A DNA stretch of 64,000 nt, from positions 36,845 through 100,844 of the forward strand of contig JAVXND010000002.1 in NCBI GenBank assembly GCA_036645955.1. The letters run 5' to 3'. The notes beneath the pieces were generated by a model. That model was given only the letters and a program-made list of their open reading frames with translations. It made no database searches and was not told the origin of the DNA. The stretch is from Clostridia bacterium (GTDB lineage Bacteria > Bacillota > Clostridia > Christensenellales > Aristaeellaceae). This document shows positions 17,410 through 26,574 of the stretch, piece by piece (within the stretch, counting starts at the first letter, position 1; each line of letters opens with the position of its first letter). The translations under genes and the position numbers were made by a program.

Positions 17410-17438
17410 GATTGAAACAGAAGCGAGGAACAACAGAT

Positions 17439-18752
17439 ATGCAGCGTCAAGATAACCGAAAGCCTACCATGCCGCGCCCATGCCAAATACAGATTGATTT
17501 TGTGGGAACCGCAGATGGCAGCTGCTTGATTGCAACTGGCAAAACACGCGTGATTTGTACTGCGAGTGTTGAGGAAGGCGTTCCGCCTTTTTTACGCGGT
17601 GCGGGCAAAGGCTGGGTTACGGCAGAATATGCTATGCTGCCCGCCTCTACAGGTAAGCGCAAGGCGAGGGACGGCATCAAAAAGGATGGACGAAGTGTGG
17701 AAATTCAACGCCTGATCGGCCGTGCCCTGCGCCAAGCGGTGGACATGCAAAAATTGGGCGAGCGAACCATCACGCTGGATTGTGATGTGCTTGAAGCCGA
17801 CGGCGGCACGCGCACAGCATCCATCACAGGGGCTTTTGTAGCGCTGGTGCTTGCGGTGGACAAGCTTATGAAAAATGGCCGAATCGAAGAAAACCCGATT
17901 GTTTCTCAAATAGCGGCAATCAGCGCGGGGATTGTAGGGGACACCCCCATGCTTGATTTGTGCTACGTGGAAGACAGCAACGCTCAAGCTGATATGAACT
18001 TTGTAATGAACCAACGCGGCGAATTTATTGAATTGCAGGGCACTGGCGAAGGGCGCGCCTTTACCAACCGCGAGCTTGCCACCTTGCTAAACCAAGGCCG
18101 CCTTGGTGTGCGGGAGCTCATGCGGCGGCAACGCAACGCATTATCGGGGCGCGGCGATTGGCTGTTGCCGCCCCAGCGCTTGGTTGTGGCCAGCGGAAAC
18201 GCACACAAGCTCAAGGAGCTTTCGGAAATTTTTGGCGGCACCTATGAGCTGATTTCCATGAAGGAAGCGGGCTTTGAGGATGAGGTTGACGAAACGGGCG
18301 CTACCTTCAGCGAAAACGCCGTATTGAAAGCCGAAGCGGTGATGAAACAAACGGGCTTGCCCACCCTTGCGGATGACAGCGGGCTTAGCGTAGATGCGCT
18401 TGACGGCGCGCCTGGCGTGCGAAGCGCAAGGTATGCAGGGGATCATGGAAATGATCAAGCAAACAATCTTTTGCTGCTTCAAAATATGGCGGAGATCAAA
18501 AACCGCGCCTGCCGTTTTGTGTGCGCCATGGCTTTGGCGCTGCCGGGAGAAGAAACGCGCACAGTGGCGGGGGAGTGTCCAGGTGAATTGCTCTATGAGC
18601 ACGCAGGTGAAAGCGGTTTTGGATATGACCCGCTGTTTCGCTATGAAAATGGAAAAACCTTTGGGGAAATGAGTGAAAAACAAAAAAATGCCGTGAGCCA
18701 CCGCGCCCGTGCGGCTGAAAAAATGAAACGGCTGCTTGCGGAGGTCTTATGA
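17439..18752 (+). CDS. rph: Fusion protein: ribonuclease PH + dITP/XTP pyrophosphatase (RdgB/HAM1)
   Basis: The N-terminal half has RNase PH features (GSCLIATGKTRVICTASV, TAEYAMLPAST, DCDVLEADGGTRTA). The C-terminal half is RdgB-like (LVVASGNAHKLKE, ADDSGL, FGYDPLF, SHRA). Start is ATG 17439 after GAGGA. Confidence 0.9.
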   Translation: MQRQDNRKPTMPRPCQIQIDFVGTADGSCLIATGKTRVICTASVEEGVPPFLRGAGKGWVTAEYAMLPASTGKRKARDGIKKDGRSVEIQRLIGRALRQAVDMQKLGERTITLDCDVLEADGGTRTASITGAFVALVLAVDKLMKNGRIEENPIVSQIAAISAGIVGDTPMLDLCYVEDSNAQADMNFVMNQRGEFIELQGTGEGRAFTNRELATLLNQGRLGVRELMRRQRNALSGRGDWLLPPQRLVVASGNAHKLKELSEIFGGTYELISMKEAGFEDEVDETGATFSENAVLKAEAVMKQTGLPTLADDSGLSVDALDGAPGVRSARYAGDHGNDQANNLLLLQNMAEIKNRACRFVCAMALALPGEETRTVAGECPGELLYEHAGESGFGYDPLFRYENGKTFGEMSEKQKNAVSHRARAAEKMKRLLAEVL

Positions 18753-19298: not shown

Positions 19299-19327
19299 TT
19301 GACACCTTAACAGAAAAGTGATATTCT
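19299..19327 (+). promoter_or_regulatory. Sigma-A-type promoter of the iscR-nifS-nifU operon
   Basis: TTGACA (19299-19304), a 17-nt spacer, then TATTCT (19322-19327) with an extended TG at 19319-19320. Confidence 0.6.
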
Positions 19328-19377: not shown

Positions 19378-19824
19378 ATGAAGCTATCAACACGCGGTAA
19401 ATATGGGCTTTACGCCATGTTCGATCTTGCCAAGCACGCAGGGGAAGGGCCTCGCGCATTGCAAAGCATTGCCGCAACGGGCGTTCCAAAGCAATATTTG
19501 GAACAACTTTTGGGCAACCTGCGCCGTGCGGGTTTGGTGAGCACTGTGCGCGGTGCACAAGGCGGGTACCTCATTACCAGACCCACGAATGAAATTTCTC
19601 TGCTCAACATTATCGATGCGGTAGAAGGCCCCATTGAACTGAGCGAATGTACCTCCGACGAGCATACCTGCGAGCGCTCATGCGGCTGTCCCGTTCGTTG
19701 GGTGTGGCAGCAGGTAACCGATTCCATCAATGCCGAGCTTGACAAAATCAAGCTCTCCGATATGCTGATTCAACCATGCGAAAGCGAGGAAAGGACCCAT
19801 GAAAAAGATCATTTACATGGATAA
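19378..19824 (+). CDS. Rrf2-family transcriptional regulator (IscR/CymR-like)
   Basis: [18 protein letters not shown]... (Rrf2 wHTH) and a C-terminal Cys cluster CERSCGC. Start moved to ATG 19378, giving 148 aa. Confidence 0.9.
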
Positions 19825-20968
19825 TGCGGCCACAACCGCTGTACGCCCCGAGGTGCTTGAAACCATGATGCCATATTTTACACAGTATTATGGCAACCCA
19901 AGCTCTATACACAGCGTAGGGCGGGATGCACGCCGAGCAGTGGAAAATGCACGTCGGCAAGTGGCTTTGGCCATTGGTGCGGATGCACGCGAAATTTACT
20001 TTACCGCAGGCGGCAGTGAAAGCGATAACTGGGCCATTCGCTGTGCTACCGCCGCCCTTGCAAACAAGGGCAAGCATATTATCACCAGCGCCGTTGAGCA
20101 CCATGCGGTTTTACATACCTGTGCGATGCTTGAAAAGCAAGGCTATCGCATAACCTATCTGCCTGTAGATGGGGAGGGGCTTGTTAAGCCGCAGGATGTT
20201 CGAAACGCCCTTTGCGATGATACCGTACTCATTACCATCATGGCGGCGAACAATGAAATTGGTACCCTACAGCCCATTGCTGAAATTGGCAAAATTGCCA
20301 AGGCGGCGGGTATTCTTTTCCATACAGACGCAGTGCAGGCCGTGGGAGCGGTTCCCATTGATGTGAACGCTTTGCAGGTGGACATGCTCAGCCTTTCTGG
20401 TCATAAGTTTCATGCACCAAAGGGCGTTGGAGCACTATACATCCGCAAGGGCGTAAAAATCAAAAATTTGATTTACGGAGGCGCGCAGGAACGCGGCCTT
20501 CGCGCAGGCACAGAAAATGTTCCCGGAATTGTGGGACTGGGCAAAGCAATTGAGCTTGCCGTTTCAGAATTGCCTGAATATACACAGAAAATGACGCATC
20601 TGCGGGATCGCTTGATTGATGGTATATTGGCTGAAATCCCCAATGTACGCCTCAACGGGCACCGTACCCTTCGTTTGCCTGCCAATGTGAATGTATCGGT
20701 GCGCTATGTGGAGGGCGAAGCATTGCTGATGCGCCTTGATTTGGCTGGCATAGAAGGCTCCAGCGGTTCGGCTTGCACCAGCGGGAGCTTGGACCCGTCT
20801 CATGTGCTGTTGGCCATTGGTCTGCCTCACGAAATAGCCCATGGCAGTTTAAGGCTATCCCTTGGCACCGAAAACACGGATGAGGATGTGGACAAGGTGC
20901 TTGCGGAGCTGCCCAAAATTGTTGAAAACCTACGCGCAATGAGCCCGCTCAACCCTGTGAATGCCTAA
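19799..20968 (+). CDS. nifS: Cysteine desulfurase (NifS/IscS type)
   Basis: YMDNAATT, the [10 protein letters not shown] pyridoxal-lysine region, and the active-site loop SSGSACTSG. Confidence 0.92.
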
Positions 20969-21005: not shown

Positions 21006-21386
21006 ATGTACAGCGAAAAAGTAATGGAACACTTTGAACATCCCCGCAATGTGGGCGAAATTCCAAATGCATCGGGTACAGGCACGGTTGGCAATGCCAA
21101 GTGCGGCGATATTATGAAAATGGATATCAAGGTGGAGAATAACATCATTACGGATGTGAAGTTTAAGACCTTCGGTTGCTGTGCCGCTATTGCCACCAGC
21201 AGCATGGCTACTGAAATGGTTATGGGGAAAAGCGTTGACGAAGCGCTTGAGCTTACCAACAAAGCCGTTGCGGAAGCGCTGGATGGTCTGCCCCCTGTTA
21301 AAATGCACTGCTCATTGCTTGCCGAGGAGGCAATCCATGCGGCAGTGGAGGATTATCAAAAAAAGCATGCCTCAGGGAATGCTTGA
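21006..21386 (+). CDS. nifU: Fe-S cluster assembly scaffold (NifU N-terminal/IscU type)
   Basis: GNAKCGD, FKTFGCCAAIA and MHCS motifs; strong RBS AAGGAGG. Confidence 0.92.
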   Translation: MYSEKVMEHFEHPRNVGEIPNASGTGTVGNAKCGDIMKMDIKVENNIITDVKFKTFGCCAAIATSSMATEMVMGKSVDEALELTNKAVAEALDGLPPVKMHCSLLAEEAIHAAVEDYQKKHASGNA

Positions 21387-23191
21387 AAGGAAGGCCTATG
21401 CCCGATATTCATGGCAATATAGAAGGAATTCGCAAAAGTGTACTGGAGGAACTGAGTGCCATTTATGATATTCAGCTCCAGTCCGATGATTTTATGCCGC
21501 AAGACTTAATGATAAGCCTTTGCGGCTATTCTGCGTCCCTGAATCGTGAAATTGCACTGTATATTACACGCTTTGGTGAAATTGCAGATGTGATGGTGGG
21601 GCGTTCGGACAGCATTGAGCTGCCCGACCTGCGCTCGCGCAGAAGCGAGCGAAAGCTAAGCAGAATGCGCTGTGTACATACCCATCCCAATGGCTCTGGC
21701 GAGCTAAGCGATGTGGATGTGAGCGCGCTTCTCAACATGCGTTTTGACGCGATGTGCGCCATAGGCGTAGCCAAGGATGGACACCCTACCAGCGTGCAGT
21801 GCGCCTTTTTGGATACTGCGCACGATGGACTTGTGTGCAAAACAGAGCTGTTAAACGCTCGCAAATTACCGCAAGAGGCTTGGCTTCGTGAAATAGAGGA
21901 GACAGAAAGCTATTTTTTAACAGCTGAACCCACAACGGAGCATGCCATAGAGCGTGCTGTTTTGGTTGGCATTGAAAGCGAAGAAGCGCTGTCGGAGCTT
22001 CGTGAACTGGCAAAAACGGCCGGAGCGGAAACCGTCCTTACCTTGTTTCAAAAGCGCTCCAAGCCCGACACTGTTTTTTGCATCGGAAAAGGCAAGGCGG
22101 AAGAATTATCACTGCGCTGTCAGGCGGTGCAAGCTGATCTTGTGATTTTTGATGAAGAGCTTTCGGGGGTGATGCAAAAGAACCTGGAAGAAGTGCTTCG
22201 CGTAAAGGTGATTGACCGCACAGCATTGATTCTGGACATTTTTGCATCGCGTGCCAGCACGCGGGAGGGCAAGCTGCAGGTTGAAATTGCGCAGCTTCGT
22301 TACCGAAGCCAGCGTTTGCTTGGGCAAGGCTTGGTGCTGAGCAGGCTTGCGGGCGGCATTGGCACGCGCGGCCCCGGTGAGAGCAAGCTGGAGGTAAACC
22401 GCCGCCGCATTCGTGAACGTTTAACCGATTTAAGCCGTGAGCTTGAACAGATCGAGAAGCAAAGAAGCCTGCGCAGACAGAACCGTGAGCGCAACAATGT
22501 GCCCATTGTGGCGCTGGTTGGATACACAAACGCAGGAAAATCAACTTTATTCAACCTTTTGACGGGCGCAAACGTCTATGTAATGGATCAGCTTTTTGCA
22601 ACGCTGGATAGTGTGAGCCGTCCTGCTGTTTTGCCTCATGGGAATAAGGTGCTGATGGTGGATACCGTTGGCTTTATTCGCAAATTGCCCCATGAGCTGG
22701 TGAAAGCGTTTCGGGCGACACTTGAAGAGGCAAAATTAGCCGATGTGTTGGTCGTGCTATGCGATGGTGCGGATGCGGAGCTTGCATCACGCCATCAAAC
22801 AGTGCTGGAGGTGCTGGACAGCCTTGGCGCCACAGAAGCCCCTCGAGTGGATGTACTCAACAAATGCGATTTGTTTGCGGAAAATGCTGATTTACTGCCT
22901 GGCGCGGTGCGCGTGAGCGCAAAAACGGGCGAAGGCATAGAAGCCTTGCTTACCCGCATTGAAAGCGAGCTGGATGCAGGAACGCAGGAAATCAAGCTGT
23001 TTATACCCTTTGAGCATTATGCGCTTGTGAGCAAGCTGCACGATATGGGCGGTGTGCTTTCTCAGGAGCATGGGGAAAAAGGCGTAACACTTGTGATGCT
23101 TACAAAGCAAGCAATTGTAAATTATGCGTGTCAAGAAGGCGCAACCTTGCTTGACGGCGAAAAAGCGGTTGCTAAAGTATTACAAAAATGA
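21383..23191 (+). CDS. hflX: GTPase HflX with ~170-aa N-terminal JAB/MPN(JAMM-motif) extension
   Basis: - C-terminal 430 aa are HflX-like: GKLQVEIAQL, GPGESKLE, G1 GYTNAGKST, DTVGFI, NKCD.
- The N-terminus contains HTHPNGSGELSDVD, which equals H-x-H-x7-S-x2-D.
- Start is either TTG 21383 (overlapping the nifU stop) or ATG 21398. Confidence 0.85.
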   Translation: MKGRPMPDIHGNIEGIRKSVLEELSAIYDIQLQSDDFMPQDLMISLCGYSASLNREIALYITRFGEIADVMVGRSDSIELPDLRSRRSERKLSRMRCVHTHPNGSGELSDVDVSALLNMRFDAMCAIGVAKDGHPTSVQCAFLDTAHDGLVCKTELLNARKLPQEAWLREIEETESYFLTAEPTTEHAIERAVLVGIESEEALSELRELAKTAGAETVLTLFQKRSKPDTVFCIGKGKAEELSLRCQAVQADLVIFDEELSGVMQKNLEEVLRVKVIDRTALILDIFASRASTREGKLQVEIAQLRYRSQRLLGQGLVLSRLAGGIGTRGPGESKLEVNRRRIRERLTDLSRELEQIEKQRSLRRQNRERNNVPIVALVGYTNAGKSTLFNLLTGANVYVMDQLFATLDSVSRPAVLPHGNKVLMVDTVGFIRKLPHELVKAFRATLEEAKLADVLVVLCDGADAELASRHQTVLEVLDSLGATEAPRVDVLNKCDLFAENADLLPGAVRVSAKTGEGIEALLTRIESELDAGTQEIKLFIPFEHYALVSKLHDMGGVLSQEHGEKGVTLVMLTKQAIVNYACQEGATLLDGEKAVAKVLQK

Positions 23192-23219: not shown

Positions 23220-23909
23220 TTGTTGCTTGAAAAGGTGGTTTCTCTTGTGGCGATATCCGTGACCCTGCTAGGTGGCAGTATGAACGCGAGCATGCCGGAT
23301 AAAAACATGGAGGGCACAGCGTTTTTGGTCAACCGCCAGCATGTTATCAGCGGTGACTATGTGCCCCAAGTGCGTAAAACGGAGCTGTATGGTATGTCGC
23401 AAAGAATGCGCGGCGATGCGGCTACCGCGCTTGAAGAGCTGTTTGCAGCAGCAAAAAGCGAAGCGGGTTTTTCGCTTGCTACGGTGTCTGGTTACCGCAG
23501 TTATTCAAAACAGGCTACCATCTACGCCAGAAAAAAAGCCAACACAGGCAGTGCGGAAAAAGCGGACCGTTTGGTTGCTTTGCCGGGCACAAGCGAGCAT
23601 CAGCTTGGCATGGCAATGGATATTGCCAAAAAAGGCAGCTCGCAATTAAACGGCGGCTTTGGAAAAACACAAGAAGGTCAATGGGTGAACGCAAACGCAC
23701 ATAGATTTGGCTTCATTGTGCGCTATCAGCTAGGCAGTGAGGAAATTACAGGCTATAATTATGAACCGTGGCATATTCGTTATGTTGGAAAAGAACATGC
23801 CAAAGCCATTTTTGAGTCTGGTGTGCCCATGGAAATCTACATGTCTGCACACAAGCTGAATGTATATGACTTTTTGATCCATCAAGCGACGAATGAGGTG
23901 CTCCCATGA
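23220..23909 (+). CDS. VanY/M15B-family D-alanyl-D-alanine carboxypeptidase (paralog 1)
   Basis: SGYRSY, PGTSEHQLGMAMD (SxHxxGxAxD) and EPWHIRYVG (ExxH). The start is uncertain: TTG 23220 or GTG 23247. Confidence 0.85.
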   Translation: MLLEKVVSLVAISVTLLGGSMNASMPDKNMEGTAFLVNRQHVISGDYVPQVRKTELYGMSQRMRGDAATALEELFAAAKSEAGFSLATVSGYRSYSKQATIYARKKANTGSAEKADRLVALPGTSEHQLGMAMDIAKKGSSQLNGGFGKTQEGQWVNANAHRFGFIVRYQLGSEEITGYNYEPWHIRYVGKEHAKAIFESGVPMEIYMSAHKLNVYDFLIHQATNEVLP

Positions 23910-24832
23910 AAAAGCTGATTTGTGGAATGCTTATGATAATGCTGTGCCTGTATGGCTTTTCGGCCATGGCTGAAACGGTTCCTGACATAGAAACACAGAA
24001 GAGCACAAGCGATGTACGATGGTCTTACCCTATTTCCCTGACGACTTTACGCTCGCCGTATCTGCTGCTTGTGAACAAAGAAATGCCGCTTGATAAAACC
24101 CATGTTCCCGAACCGCTTGTGAAGGTAAAGAGTGTAAAGCGTGCCACCTCTGCTGATGTATACTTGGAAGAAAAAACAGCACAGGCGCTTGAAAGCATGT
24201 TTGAAGCCGCAAAGCTGGTAAGAGAATACAACTATGTGAGCGTAAACAGCAAGGGCGAGGAATGTGAAATGGTTGCCGAATACGGCGATAAAGGCATGGT
24301 GCTGTTTTTAAAGAGCGGCTACCGCAGCTACGGCACACAAAAAACTACGTACACCAACCGTTTGGCAAGCAACAACAATGTAGACAACGGTTTTGTGGCC
24401 AAGCCCGGGGAGAGCGAGCACCAAACGGGCTACTGCGCAGATATTTTAAATGCAGATTATGCCACTCGTCCACGCATGACACAGGATTTTAAATGGACAC
24501 CCGAAGCACAATGGATGAAAGAGCATTGCGCAGAATTTGGGTTTATTCTGCGTTTTCTGGAAGACAAAGAAGAAGAAACGGGCATTCATTTTGAACCGTG
24601 GCATTTTCGCTATGTAGGCAAGGAAGCCGCTGGATACATCATGCAAAAAGGCATGGTGTTAGAAGAATTTACAGATGAATGGCAATTTGCATCTGCTGAA
24701 TTTGTTGGCGGCGGCGGCGATGCGGAAGCACAGCTTGCCTATGAACTAGAGCGGCTCAACGCGCCGCCCGAGAGCGTTATTTTGGATGAACATGGCGAGG
24801 ATGGCGACGCGGAGGTTTCACTGGTGTTTTAG
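23906..24832 (+). CDS. VanY/M15B-family D,D-carboxypeptidase (paralog 2), secreted
   Basis: Signal peptide, then SGYRSY, PGESEHQTGYCAD and EPWHFRYVG. There is a 4-nt overlap with paralog 1. Confidence 0.85.
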   Translation: MKKLICGMLMIMLCLYGFSAMAETVPDIETQKSTSDVRWSYPISLTTLRSPYLLLVNKEMPLDKTHVPEPLVKVKSVKRATSADVYLEEKTAQALESMFEAAKLVREYNYVSVNSKGEECEMVAEYGDKGMVLFLKSGYRSYGTQKTTYTNRLASNNNVDNGFVAKPGESEHQTGYCADILNADYATRPRMTQDFKWTPEAQWMKEHCAEFGFILRFLEDKEEETGIHFEPWHFRYVGKEAAGYIMQKGMVLEEFTDEWQFASAEFVGGGGDAEAQLAYELERLNAPPESVILDEHGEDGDAEVSLVF

Positions 24833-24931: not shown

Positions 24932-25690
24932 ATGGGCAAGACGATCGCCATTACCAATCAAAAGGGCGGTGTGGGAAAAACCACCACTGCCATTAACTTA
25001 ACGGCGTGCCTTGCTGAAGCGGGTCAACGCGTATTGTTGATTGATTTAGATCCGCAGGGCAACAGCACAAGCGGCCTTGGCATGCGCGCGGGAGCAAACT
25101 CAATTTATGAAGCAATTATGGGGCGCACGGCTGTAGAAAGCTGCGTACAGCAGACCTGCGTGGATGCATTAAGCATCATAACCGCAGATATCCGCTTAGC
25201 AGGCGCTGAACTTGAGCTTGTGGAGTTGGAAGAGCGCGAGTTTCGTCTAAAGCATGTGCTGAAAGCCATTGAAAGCAAATTTGACTACCTTTTTATTGAT
25301 TGTCCTCCTTCGCTGGGCTTGCTTACACTCAACGCGCTTACAGCCGCCCAACGCGTTTTTATCCCCATACAGTGTGAGTATTATGCGCTTGAAGGCGTTA
25401 CAAGCCTCATGAACACCATTAACCGCGTCAAGCACACCTTTAATCCCGGGCTAGACATTGAAGGCGTTTTGCTCACCATGCTGGATGGGCGAACCAACTT
25501 GAGCCTGCAAGTGGTGGATTCTGTGAAAAAGCACTTTAAGAACAAGGTTTTTGCTACTGCCATTCCCAGAAATGTTCGCTTGGGTGAAGCACCCAGCCAT
25601 GGGGTGCCTATTCACCTGTATGACCCAAAGAGCCTTGGTGCGGAAAGCTACCGTCAATTGGCGCAAGAGTTTATGAAACGCAACAAATAA
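24932..25690 (+). CDS. parA: ParA/Soj chromosome-partitioning ATPase
   Basis: Deviant Walker A NQKGGVGKTT; DLDPQGN; IDCPPSLG. Confidence 0.92.
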   Translation: MGKTIAITNQKGGVGKTTTAINLTACLAEAGQRVLLIDLDPQGNSTSGLGMRAGANSIYEAIMGRTAVESCVQQTCVDALSIITADIRLAGAELELVELEEREFRLKHVLKAIESKFDYLFIDCPPSLGLLTLNALTAAQRVFIPIQCEYYALEGVTSLMNTINRVKHTFNPGLDIEGVLLTMLDGRTNLSLQVVDSVKKHFKNKVFATAIPRNVRLGEAPSHGVPIHLYDPKSLGAESYRQLAQEFMKRNK

Positions 25691-25722
25691 GGCAGTCAGT
25701 AAAAATGAAGGAGCTATGAAAG

Positions 25723-26574
25723 ATGAAGCGCGGCGGATTGGGTAGGGGCTTGGATGTGCTACTGCCTCAAAGTGACGAACTTTTGGAAACAGTGGTGCGC
25801 GATATTGCAATTGACGATATCGATCCCAACACTGCTCAACCCAGACGAGAATTTGATAAAGAAGCGTTGGAACAGCTGGCGCAGAGCATTCGTGAAGCGG
25901 GCGTGCTATCCCCTATTTTGGTGGTGGAAAATGGCATGCGTTACCGCATTGTTGCAGGTGAACGGCGTTATCGTGCTTGCCGCTTGGCGGGGATTGAAAA
26001 TGTTCCCTGCATTGTGCGCAACCTAACAAACGAGCAGCAAATGGAAGCGGCGCTGATTGAAAACCTTCAGCGTGAAGATTTAAACGCCATTGAGGAAGCC
26101 AACGCCATTCGCAGTTTGATGCAGGAATGCGGCTATACCCAAGAGCAAGCGGCTCAGAAGCTGGGCAAGAGCCGCTCTGCCATTGCCAATATGCTTCGCT
26201 TGCTGAACTTGCCTAAGTCCATTATTGATTTGGTTTCGGCGGGAGATTTGTCTGCTGGTCATGCGCGTGTGCTTGCAGGGTTGGAAAGCGAGGAGCGCCA
26301 AAAAGAATTGGCGCATCAATGCGTATTACATGACTACAGTGTGCGCAAACTGGAAGAGTTAGCCAAGCAAAGCGCAGTGCCTGAACCTAAAAAAGCACCT
26401 GCGCCCACACCTATAGCGCCTGAGCTTGGAGCACTTCAAAACGCTATGAGAGAAGCGCTTGGCCTAAAGACCCTATTGGTTGGGACTGAAAAGAAGGGCA
26501 AGATTACGCTAAGCTATCATAGCGCGGCGGAATTGGAACACCTCTACGAGGTTATCGGGCGCTTGCTAGTTTAA
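25723..26574 (+). CDS. parB: ParB/Spo0J partition protein
   Basis: ParB box GERRYRACRLAG, the HTH region QEQAAQKLGKSRSAIANMLRLL, and N-terminal GLGRGLD. Confidence 0.92.
   Translation: MKRGGLGRGLDVLLPQSDELLETVVRDIAIDDIDPNTAQPRREFDKEALEQLAQSIREAGVLSPILVVENGMRYRIVAGERRYRACRLAGIENVPCIVRNLTNEQQMEAALIENLQREDLNAIEEANAIRSLMQECGYTQEQAAQKLGKSRSAIANMLRLLNLPKSIIDLVSAGDLSAGHARVLAGLESEERQKELAHQCVLHDYSVRKLEELAKQSAVPEPKKAPAPTPIAPELGALQNAMREALGLKTLLVGTEKKGKITLSYHSAAELEHLYEVIGRLLV

Follow-up and report, generated by a model that had tools for sequence, protein, structure and literature searches.

A putative JAMM-type enzymatic domain at the N-terminus of HflX in Clostridia and other Bacillota

The hflX gene and its N-terminal domain

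The DNA analysed here, referred to as the window, is a stretch of 64,000 nucleotides from a gut Clostridia bacterium (Christensenellales, Aristaeellaceae; assembly GCA_036645955.1, contig JAVXND010000002.1, positions 36,845 to 100,844 of the forward strand). It contains a gene for the GTPase HflX (hflX, 21398..23191, + strand, stop included), which according to the list of open reading frames and its translation encodes 597 residues from an ATG codon, and which begins with a domain bearing the sequence signature of a JAMM metalloenzyme. The two peptide strings quoted in the initial annotation of the locus (NREIALYITRFGEI and CVHTHPNGSGELSDVDVSALL) are both present in the translation of 21398-23188 (+). 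The protein is the sole HflX of its genome, a whole-genome search with the model TIGR03156 giving one match over the cut-off; hflX is likewise a single-copy gene in five of five complete genomes that carry the fusion.

Residues 185-597 are those of a canonical HflX. They score 432.4 bits against the NCBIfam equivalog model TIGR03156 (cut-off 216.75), and the four Pfam domains of the family (ND1, helical, G and C) follow in order over residues 195-564. The N-domain (GTP-bdg_N, residues 195-283; PF13167, 1.1e-31) and the helical middle domain (GTP-bdg_M, residues 285-363; PF16360, 4.9e-27), which includes the loop directed towards the peptidyl transferase centre, occupy 21980..22486 (+); the GTPase domain (residues 371-489; PF01926, 4.5e-19) and the C-terminal domain (residues 501-564; PF19275, 6.2e-07) occupy 22508..23089 (+). 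The full-length model superposes on ribosome-bound HflX and HflXr (7yla, 8a57, 5ady and 8vk0) with target-normalised template modelling (TM) scores of 0.77-0.83. HflX and HflXr of known structure (E. coli 5ady, 7yla; Listeria 8a57, 8uua; M. smegmatis 8vk0, 8kab) share the same four domains at 37-43% identity, but the solved chains are all 414-468 residues long and are without the 175-residue N-terminal JAMM domain of the window protein. The body beyond this domain is thus an ordinary HflX, of which GTP-dependent binding to 50S and 70S particles and ribosome splitting would be expected by orthology.

The stop codon of the preceding nifU gene lies at 21384-21386, so that a TTG start at 21383 would give a 4-nt overlap and an ATG start at 21398 an 11-nt gap, exactly as first described. 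A Shine-Dalgarno-like sequence (AAAGGAAGG / AAAGGAAG(G)) can be read at 21387..21394 (+), inside this gap. Because a 597-residue NCBI protein that is 99% identical to the window HflX (P0002), and most of 77 homologues from related genomes, begin at the equivalent M-P-[DE]-[IV]-H-G-N, comparison of the N-termini identifies the ATG at 21398 as the real start.

The initial annotation placed some 170 residues ahead of the HflX N-domain and read in them an exact H-x-H-x7-S-x2-D motif (nt 21677-21718) with upstream glutamate candidates. All three statements hold. About 180 residues precede the first Pfam match, and translation and motif scan place the JAMM motif, H94-T-H96-P-x6-S104-x2-D107 (21677..21718, +), from residue 94 onwards; E51, the candidate general-base glutamate (codon 21548..21550, +), stands 43 residues before H94. 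The window protein therefore carries the full JAMM signature E-x(n)-H-x-H-x7-S-x2-D. In a six-frame scan of the whole 64-kb window the pattern H.H.{7}S..D turns up once, and 130 of 200,000 shuffled versions of the window protein contain it (6.5e-4).

Conservation was followed in three alignments: A1, of 43 full-length diverse orthologues (27-47% identity), A3, of 78 sequences, and A4, of 72. Ten positions of the domain are invariant in A1 (E51, R58, G68, L87, H94, T95, H96, S104, D107 and D117), and E51 is unchanged throughout all three alignments. A conserved basic loop (residues 68-91, 21599..21670, +; consensus LRLRRNxxRLSxVR) occupies the position of JAMM insert-1; conservation in A3 reaches 90% or more at its residues L80, R81, R82 and R86 and is complete at L87 and R91. 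Residues 1-185 were also used as a phmmer query against 1.84 billion representatives (E<=1e-3), which returned 657 clusters at 50% identity. Of the 150 top-ranked clusters, 141 have the exact HxHx7SxxD motif, the nine exceptions being fragments (five or so), two repeat proteins and two variants. The N-terminal domain exists and is not a product of chance; judged from these alignments, purifying selection acts strongly on E51, H94, H96, S104 and D107 in most of the several hundred carrier species.

The domain (residues 1-175, 21398..21922, +) was delimited by AlphaFold2, Foldseek searches of the PDB and profile matches. AlphaFold2 models it on the 78-sequence alignment with a predicted local distance difference test score (pLDDT) of 88.3 and a predicted TM-score (pTM) of 0.84. 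Two N-terminal helices are followed by β2-β3, the basic loop (pLDDT 58-77, low model confidence), β4, which ends in HxH, and α2, which opens at SxxD; three further strands and a C-terminal helix complete the model. E51 is found at the start of strand 52-57, the HTH at the end of strand 90-96 and S104/D107 at the opening of helix 105-114, which is the arrangement of the MPN fold (glutamate at the start of β2, HxH at a strand end, SxxD at a helix start). The linker from the last JAB helix to the first ND1 strand (residues 176-184, 21923..21949, +) is variable, with gapped columns in A1, and its pLDDT ranges from below 50 to 70 in both the domain and the full-length model.

JAMM/MPN structures are the best matches of this model in the PDB. 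The top Foldseek match is Pyrococcus furiosus JAMM1 (5lda/5ld9; probability 1.00, E=1.3e-3, target-normalised TM-score 0.51), and Cap3, a BRISC subunit, RadC, CSN5 and Rpn11 come next. PfJAMM1 has the same E...HxHx7SxxD motif at the same places on the secondary structure, with only 11-13% identity; beyond the minimal JAMM fold of PfJAMM1 and Prok-JAB, the window domain has the two extra N-terminal helices, the basic insert-1 loop, the C-terminal helix and the fusion to a GTPase. By sequence profile, the best PDB matches of A1 are the eukaryotic deubiquitinases AMSH-LP, AMSH and Sst2 (2znr, 3rzu, 4jxe; E=0.004-0.02), aligned on the motif. The AMSH-type alignment pairs 'iHTHPtqtafLSsvDl' with 'ciHTHPnGsgeLSevDl' over some 45 residues (E=0.004), and does not imply the second zinc site or the ubiquitin inserts of AMSH.

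Single-sequence searches are less informative. Residues 1-181 of the window protein have no Pfam or NCBIfam match and nothing usable against the PDB; the protein does not reach the gathering threshold of Prok-JAB (PF14464, 25 bits), and a Prok-JAB search of the genome at E<=1e-6 misses hflX. Across the 43 members of A1, sub-threshold matches to Prok-JAB are found in 30 (E<=1, best 2.8e-4) and to RadC in 13. The outcome of JAB profile searches is thus mixed, with no match for the window protein taken alone and sub-threshold matches for many family members, and does not refute the proposal. The initial annotation described a layout like that of RadC/JAB domains, of which the JAB part stands on fold and profile. 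RadC (PF04002; Chlorobium RadC 2qlc) is itself a JAB fold with an HxHPxGxxxPSxxD-type motif and has weak profile and fold similarity to the window domain. Membership of the RadC family was rejected: PF04002 has no match on the window protein, hhalign of A1 against RadC gives 56% probability over 37 columns, and the RadC model picks one different gene in each of 41 genomes of the order, the source genome included.

Each of these lines of evidence is modest, and because they all agree we regard a JAB fold with an intact metal site in residues 1-175 as very probable; the proposal of a JAB/MPN domain with an intact JAMM motif is thus supported by conservation, by fold matches and by the AMSH-type profile matches. 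By sequence the domain forms a JAB family of its own, outside Prok-JAB (by threshold) and outside RadC. The protein can be described as an HflX with a new, putatively enzymatic domain of a predicted new JAB subfamily. A literature search found no paper describing an HflX-JAMM fusion.

Distribution, motif-less forms and gene neighbourhood

Related genomes were found with a peptide pattern derived from an 8-sequence alignment and with tblastn. The survey of long HflX forms places the fusion in at least 590 species genomes, the best 80 of which are metagenome-assembled genomes (MAGs) of Clostridia/Christensenellales. In an even sample of the phylum it is present in 78 of 401 genomes and 51 of 278 genera, always within an HflX frame of 520-700 residues, and families are nearly all positive or all negative for the domain. 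Of the 36 genomes of the source genus 35 have it, as do 16 of the 24 other families of the order. The motif is intact in the following cultured carriers known by name: Christensenella massiliensis, Maliibacterium massiliense, Mitsuokella, Desulfitobacterium metallireducens, Dehalobacter, Phosphitispora, Desulfosporosinus and Carboxydocella. Four domain-less families of the order (represented by G442, G443, G445 and G447) yielded no HflX at E<=1e-30, with 14 of 14 controls positive; these genomes are 1.4-1.9 Mb in size and 95-99% complete, and hflX appears to have been lost in the small-genome families. In a fifth domain-less family (G455) a short HflX is encoded (L221:1336-2721), its gene flanked by lexA and a tyrosine-recombinase-like gene.

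One metagenomic homologue has an unusual pattern of divergence. Over its first ~380 residues P0115 (586 residues) is ~70% identical to the window protein, and in the G domain and C-terminus it diverges far more than do the matches ranked next to it; its sequence is possibly that of a recombinant or chimeric hflX.

The motif is intact in 67 of the 78 carriers of the phylum sample. The remaining 11 retain the domain without the motif: H94 and H96 are gone in all of them, S104 and D107 in part. Conservation of the H/H/S/D positions across long HflX forms therefore holds for the majority and fails in this minority. In Caldicellulosiruptor/Anaerocellum (six genomes: L119, L120, L164-L167) the motif position reads IFTRLSSVSHPS; in a Halanaerobiales-type group of four genomes from one family, Fuchsiella and Candidatus Frackibacter included (L124, L125, L162, L163), it reads RCIYLTL; in a single genome of family f102 (L121) it reads RILVFHKGK, and this copy has an in-frame TAA. 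None of the motif-less genomes encodes a second HflX beside the long protein. The basic loop is retained in the Halanaerobiales forms and gone in Caldicellulosiruptor. By their sequences, the motif-less carriers look like three independent pseudo-enzyme lineages, and because these lineages keep the domain without the motif, the domain also has a catalysis-independent role.

Motif-less copies of the module are also found outside HflX. Three homologues of the outer-membrane lipoprotein LptE (P0164, 1090 residues, from an ENA metagenome; P0195/P0301, 869/895 residues, from a Nitrospinota MAG) have a Pfam LptE domain (E about 1e-11) followed by four to five tandem full copies of the HflX-type JAB module, N-terminal helices included. 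The copies match with domain E-values of 1e-15 to 1e-24 and every one is without HxH; in these proteins the module is catalytically dead and serves outside the cytoplasm.

In the window, hflX follows genes for an Rrf2/IscR-type regulator (19378-19824, +; Pfam Rrf2), a NifS-type cysteine desulfurase (19799-20968, +; Pfam Aminotran_5) and a NifU/IscU scaffold (21006-21386, +; Pfam NifU_N), and precedes two VanY-type D-Ala-D-Ala carboxypeptidase genes (23220-23909 and 23906-24832, +; PF02557, 6.1e-43 and 5.6e-32). A promoter-like site is seen ahead of the Rrf2 gene (19299-19327) and no terminator-like site in the nifU-hflX interval, so that co-transcription of nifU and hflX is plausible from the sequence. 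About 48 of 80 related genomes share the order Rrf2/IscR-NifS-NifU-hflX-VanY-VanY, and some 30 lack it. Across 21 families of the phylum no neighbours recur other than Hfq, MiaA, MutL, a SpoVK-like AAA ATPase, a PF06838 Met_gamma_lyase protein and DUF456, and in other families mutL-miaA-hfq-AAA-hflX-Met_gamma_lyase replaces the Fe-S synteny. We take this set to be the ordinary Firmicute hflX (ynbA-ynbB) context. Because the neighbours in other families are those of an ordinary hflX, the window gene is an orthologue of housekeeping HflX and its linkage to iscR-nifS-nifU, seen as a fused unit in the initial annotation, is local, lineage-specific synteny and no general feature. The VanY pair is syntenic with hflX and has no evident functional link to it. 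In the 80 close loci and the 21 families, hflX has no neighbour that is specific to the domain, and genes of ubiquitin-like or E1-like proteins, or others associated with JAB domains, were not seen nearby.

Possible roles at the ribosome

HflX has been studied as a factor of ribosome splitting, heat stress and macrolide/lincosamide resistance. Since HflX begins in the carriers with a JAMM/MPN+ fold and a conserved metal site, these organisms probably bring a second enzyme to the ribosome, as judged from the model. Our preferred reading, to which we assign a probability of roughly 55%, is that the domain is a steric or anti-association add-on which in most lineages doubles as a Zn-dependent amide hydrolase whose substrate is ribosome-associated. 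The JAMM site would bind Zn2+ and hydrolyse an amide (peptide or isopeptide) bond. With HflX expected to dock on the intersubunit face of the 50S subunit, the 20-kDa JAB domain, tethered by a linker of ~10 residues before ND1, would come to lie in the vacated A-site/tRNA corridor, where its bulk would hinder the subunits from re-associating and where, in most lineages, it would also cleave its substrate during or after splitting. The Arg-rich basic loop is a candidate contact to rRNA or substrate.

The placement in the A-site/tRNA corridor is suggested because, in M. smegmatis HflX, residues Y41 and Q43 just before ND1 contact the A-site finger H38 and uL16 (PMC11831132). The mycobacterial N-terminal extension (NTE) is an add-on at the same end of HflX that alters the effect of HflX on the 50S subunit: following ND1 as far as H68-H71, it is required for their disordering (PMC11831132). 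It differs from the window domain in being a 39-residue unstructured peptide of unrelated sequence and with no enzyme fold. Peptidyl-tRNA hydrolysis at the peptidyl transferase centre was considered as an activity and is unlikely on steric grounds, as a globular 20-kDa domain would not be able to reach the centre, which only the loop of the helical domain would enter.

Several observations weigh against our preferred reading. In the 11 motif-less carriers catalysis is dispensable, and the LptE proteins use motif-less copies of the module in an extracytoplasmic setting. The window protein reaches the threshold of no Pfam or NCBIfam model, the best Foldseek E-value (1.3e-3) is borderline and the TM-scores are modest. 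The full-length AlphaFold2 model (pLDDT 82, pTM 0.62) is confident for each domain and does not fix the orientation of JAB relative to ND1. Zn binding, hydrolysis and the position of the domain on the ribosome are predictions. No conserved neighbour points to a substrate in the 80 loci and 21 families, and the remark of the initial annotation that a fused putative isopeptidase is functionally unexplained still holds.

A narrower form of the catalytic proposal is that an active JAMM metallopeptidase is delivered by HflX to the vacated A-site region of stalled or hibernating ribosomes and cleaves a ribosome-bound protein, which might for instance be a factor, the tail of a ribosomal protein or a conjugate of the nascent chain; we regard this as possible and put it forward tentatively. 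Somewhat doubtful, in our judgement, is a wholly non-catalytic module, a ribosome-binding or steric wedge or anti-association add-on in which the metal site only stabilises the fold. This would account for the three lineages that keep a full-length domain without HxH/S/D in their sole HflX, and for the four to five motif-less copies in Nitrospinota LptE proteins, whose compartment has no ribosomes; rRNA binding could fall to the conserved Arg-rich loop, and the mycobacterial NTE alters 50S rRNA without enzyme activity (PMC11831132). However, five catalytic-type positions are invariant at 27-47% identity over dozens of families, which is hard to explain through fold stability alone. Two of these, E51 and S104, correspond to a glutamate and a serine that are not metal ligands in JAMM enzymes, and for that reason their invariance argues for real catalysis in most lineages. 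Known inactive eukaryotic MPN domains, moreover, are typically without these residues.

A hydrolase of another kind, RadC-like or deaminase-like, could use zinc to cut or modify rRNA or tRNA on the split subunit. RadC 2qlc is indeed among the fold matches (E=0.02), its profile reaches 13 of the 43 A1 members below threshold and aligns by hhalign on the motif region with E=1.1e-4, tRNA and dCMP deaminases appear at Foldseek ranks 28-48, and the basic conserved loop adjoins the active site. Yet the low hhalign probability and short alignment, and the separate canonical RadC in every genome of the order, speak against this target; the biochemical activity of RadC itself is not established, the best sequence and fold matches are peptidases and the deaminase signature H/CxE...PCxxC is absent from the window sequence, so that we consider a nucleic-acid target improbable. 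The place of hflX behind the iscR-nifS-nifU Fe-S operon would fit a metal sensor, with Zn or Fe occupancy regulating HflX, and the 11-nt gap, the lack of a terminator after nifU and the synteny in about 48 of the 80 related genomes agree with it. The synteny is absent from the other ~30, however, and gives way to the mutL-miaA-hfq-AAA-hflX-Met_gamma_lyase set in other families; as nothing else ties the domain to metal homeostasis, this seems very improbable. A spurious origin of the domain, through a chance motif, mis-assembly of two genes into one or a wrongly chosen start codon, would agree with the lack of a database domain match and with nothing more. The architecture is shared by at least 590 species genomes, complete ones of cultured Christensenella, Maliibacterium, Mitsuokella, Desulfitobacterium and Dehalobacter among them; the frames run without a break and the motif is invariant in 43 orthologues, which makes an artefact hardly conceivable.

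In a large share of anaerobic Bacillota, then, the sole HflX carries a conserved enzyme-like domain, the groups affected including common gut Christensenellales, Selenomonadaceae (Mitsuokella) and Desulfitobacteriaceae. Were the domain active, a cleavage step would form part of ribosome rescue in the carriers, and the models drawn from E. coli, Listeria and mycobacteria would be incomplete for them. If the metallopeptidase proposal is true, splitting would be coupled to irreversible proteolysis in many Clostridia, Negativicutes and their relatives; we know of no bacterium for which a rescue chemistry with such a proteolytic step has been described. The motif-less Caldicellulosiruptor and Halanaerobiales variants, together with the relatives without hflX, offer natural comparisons.

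Other observations in the window and in related genomes

The two VanY genes directly 3' of hflX overlap by 4 nt and are followed by parA/parB (24932-26574), which suggests that the region may lie near the replication origin. Upstream, at 17412-18752 (+), an open reading frame of 446 residues joins RNase PH (PF01138/PF03725) to a Ham1/RdgB-type non-canonical NTP pyrophosphatase (PF01725); the fused frame is matched in 7 of the 80 related loci. A further JAMM motif, HTHPSGIAKLSKAD, was seen towards the C-terminus of a predicted membrane protein of 478 residues (L122:1838-3274 (-); G093, contig 29), which is unrelated to HflX and has a Cys-rich tail. Its profile match covers the motif region only (E=3e-8), and its gene adjoins unannotated open reading frames.

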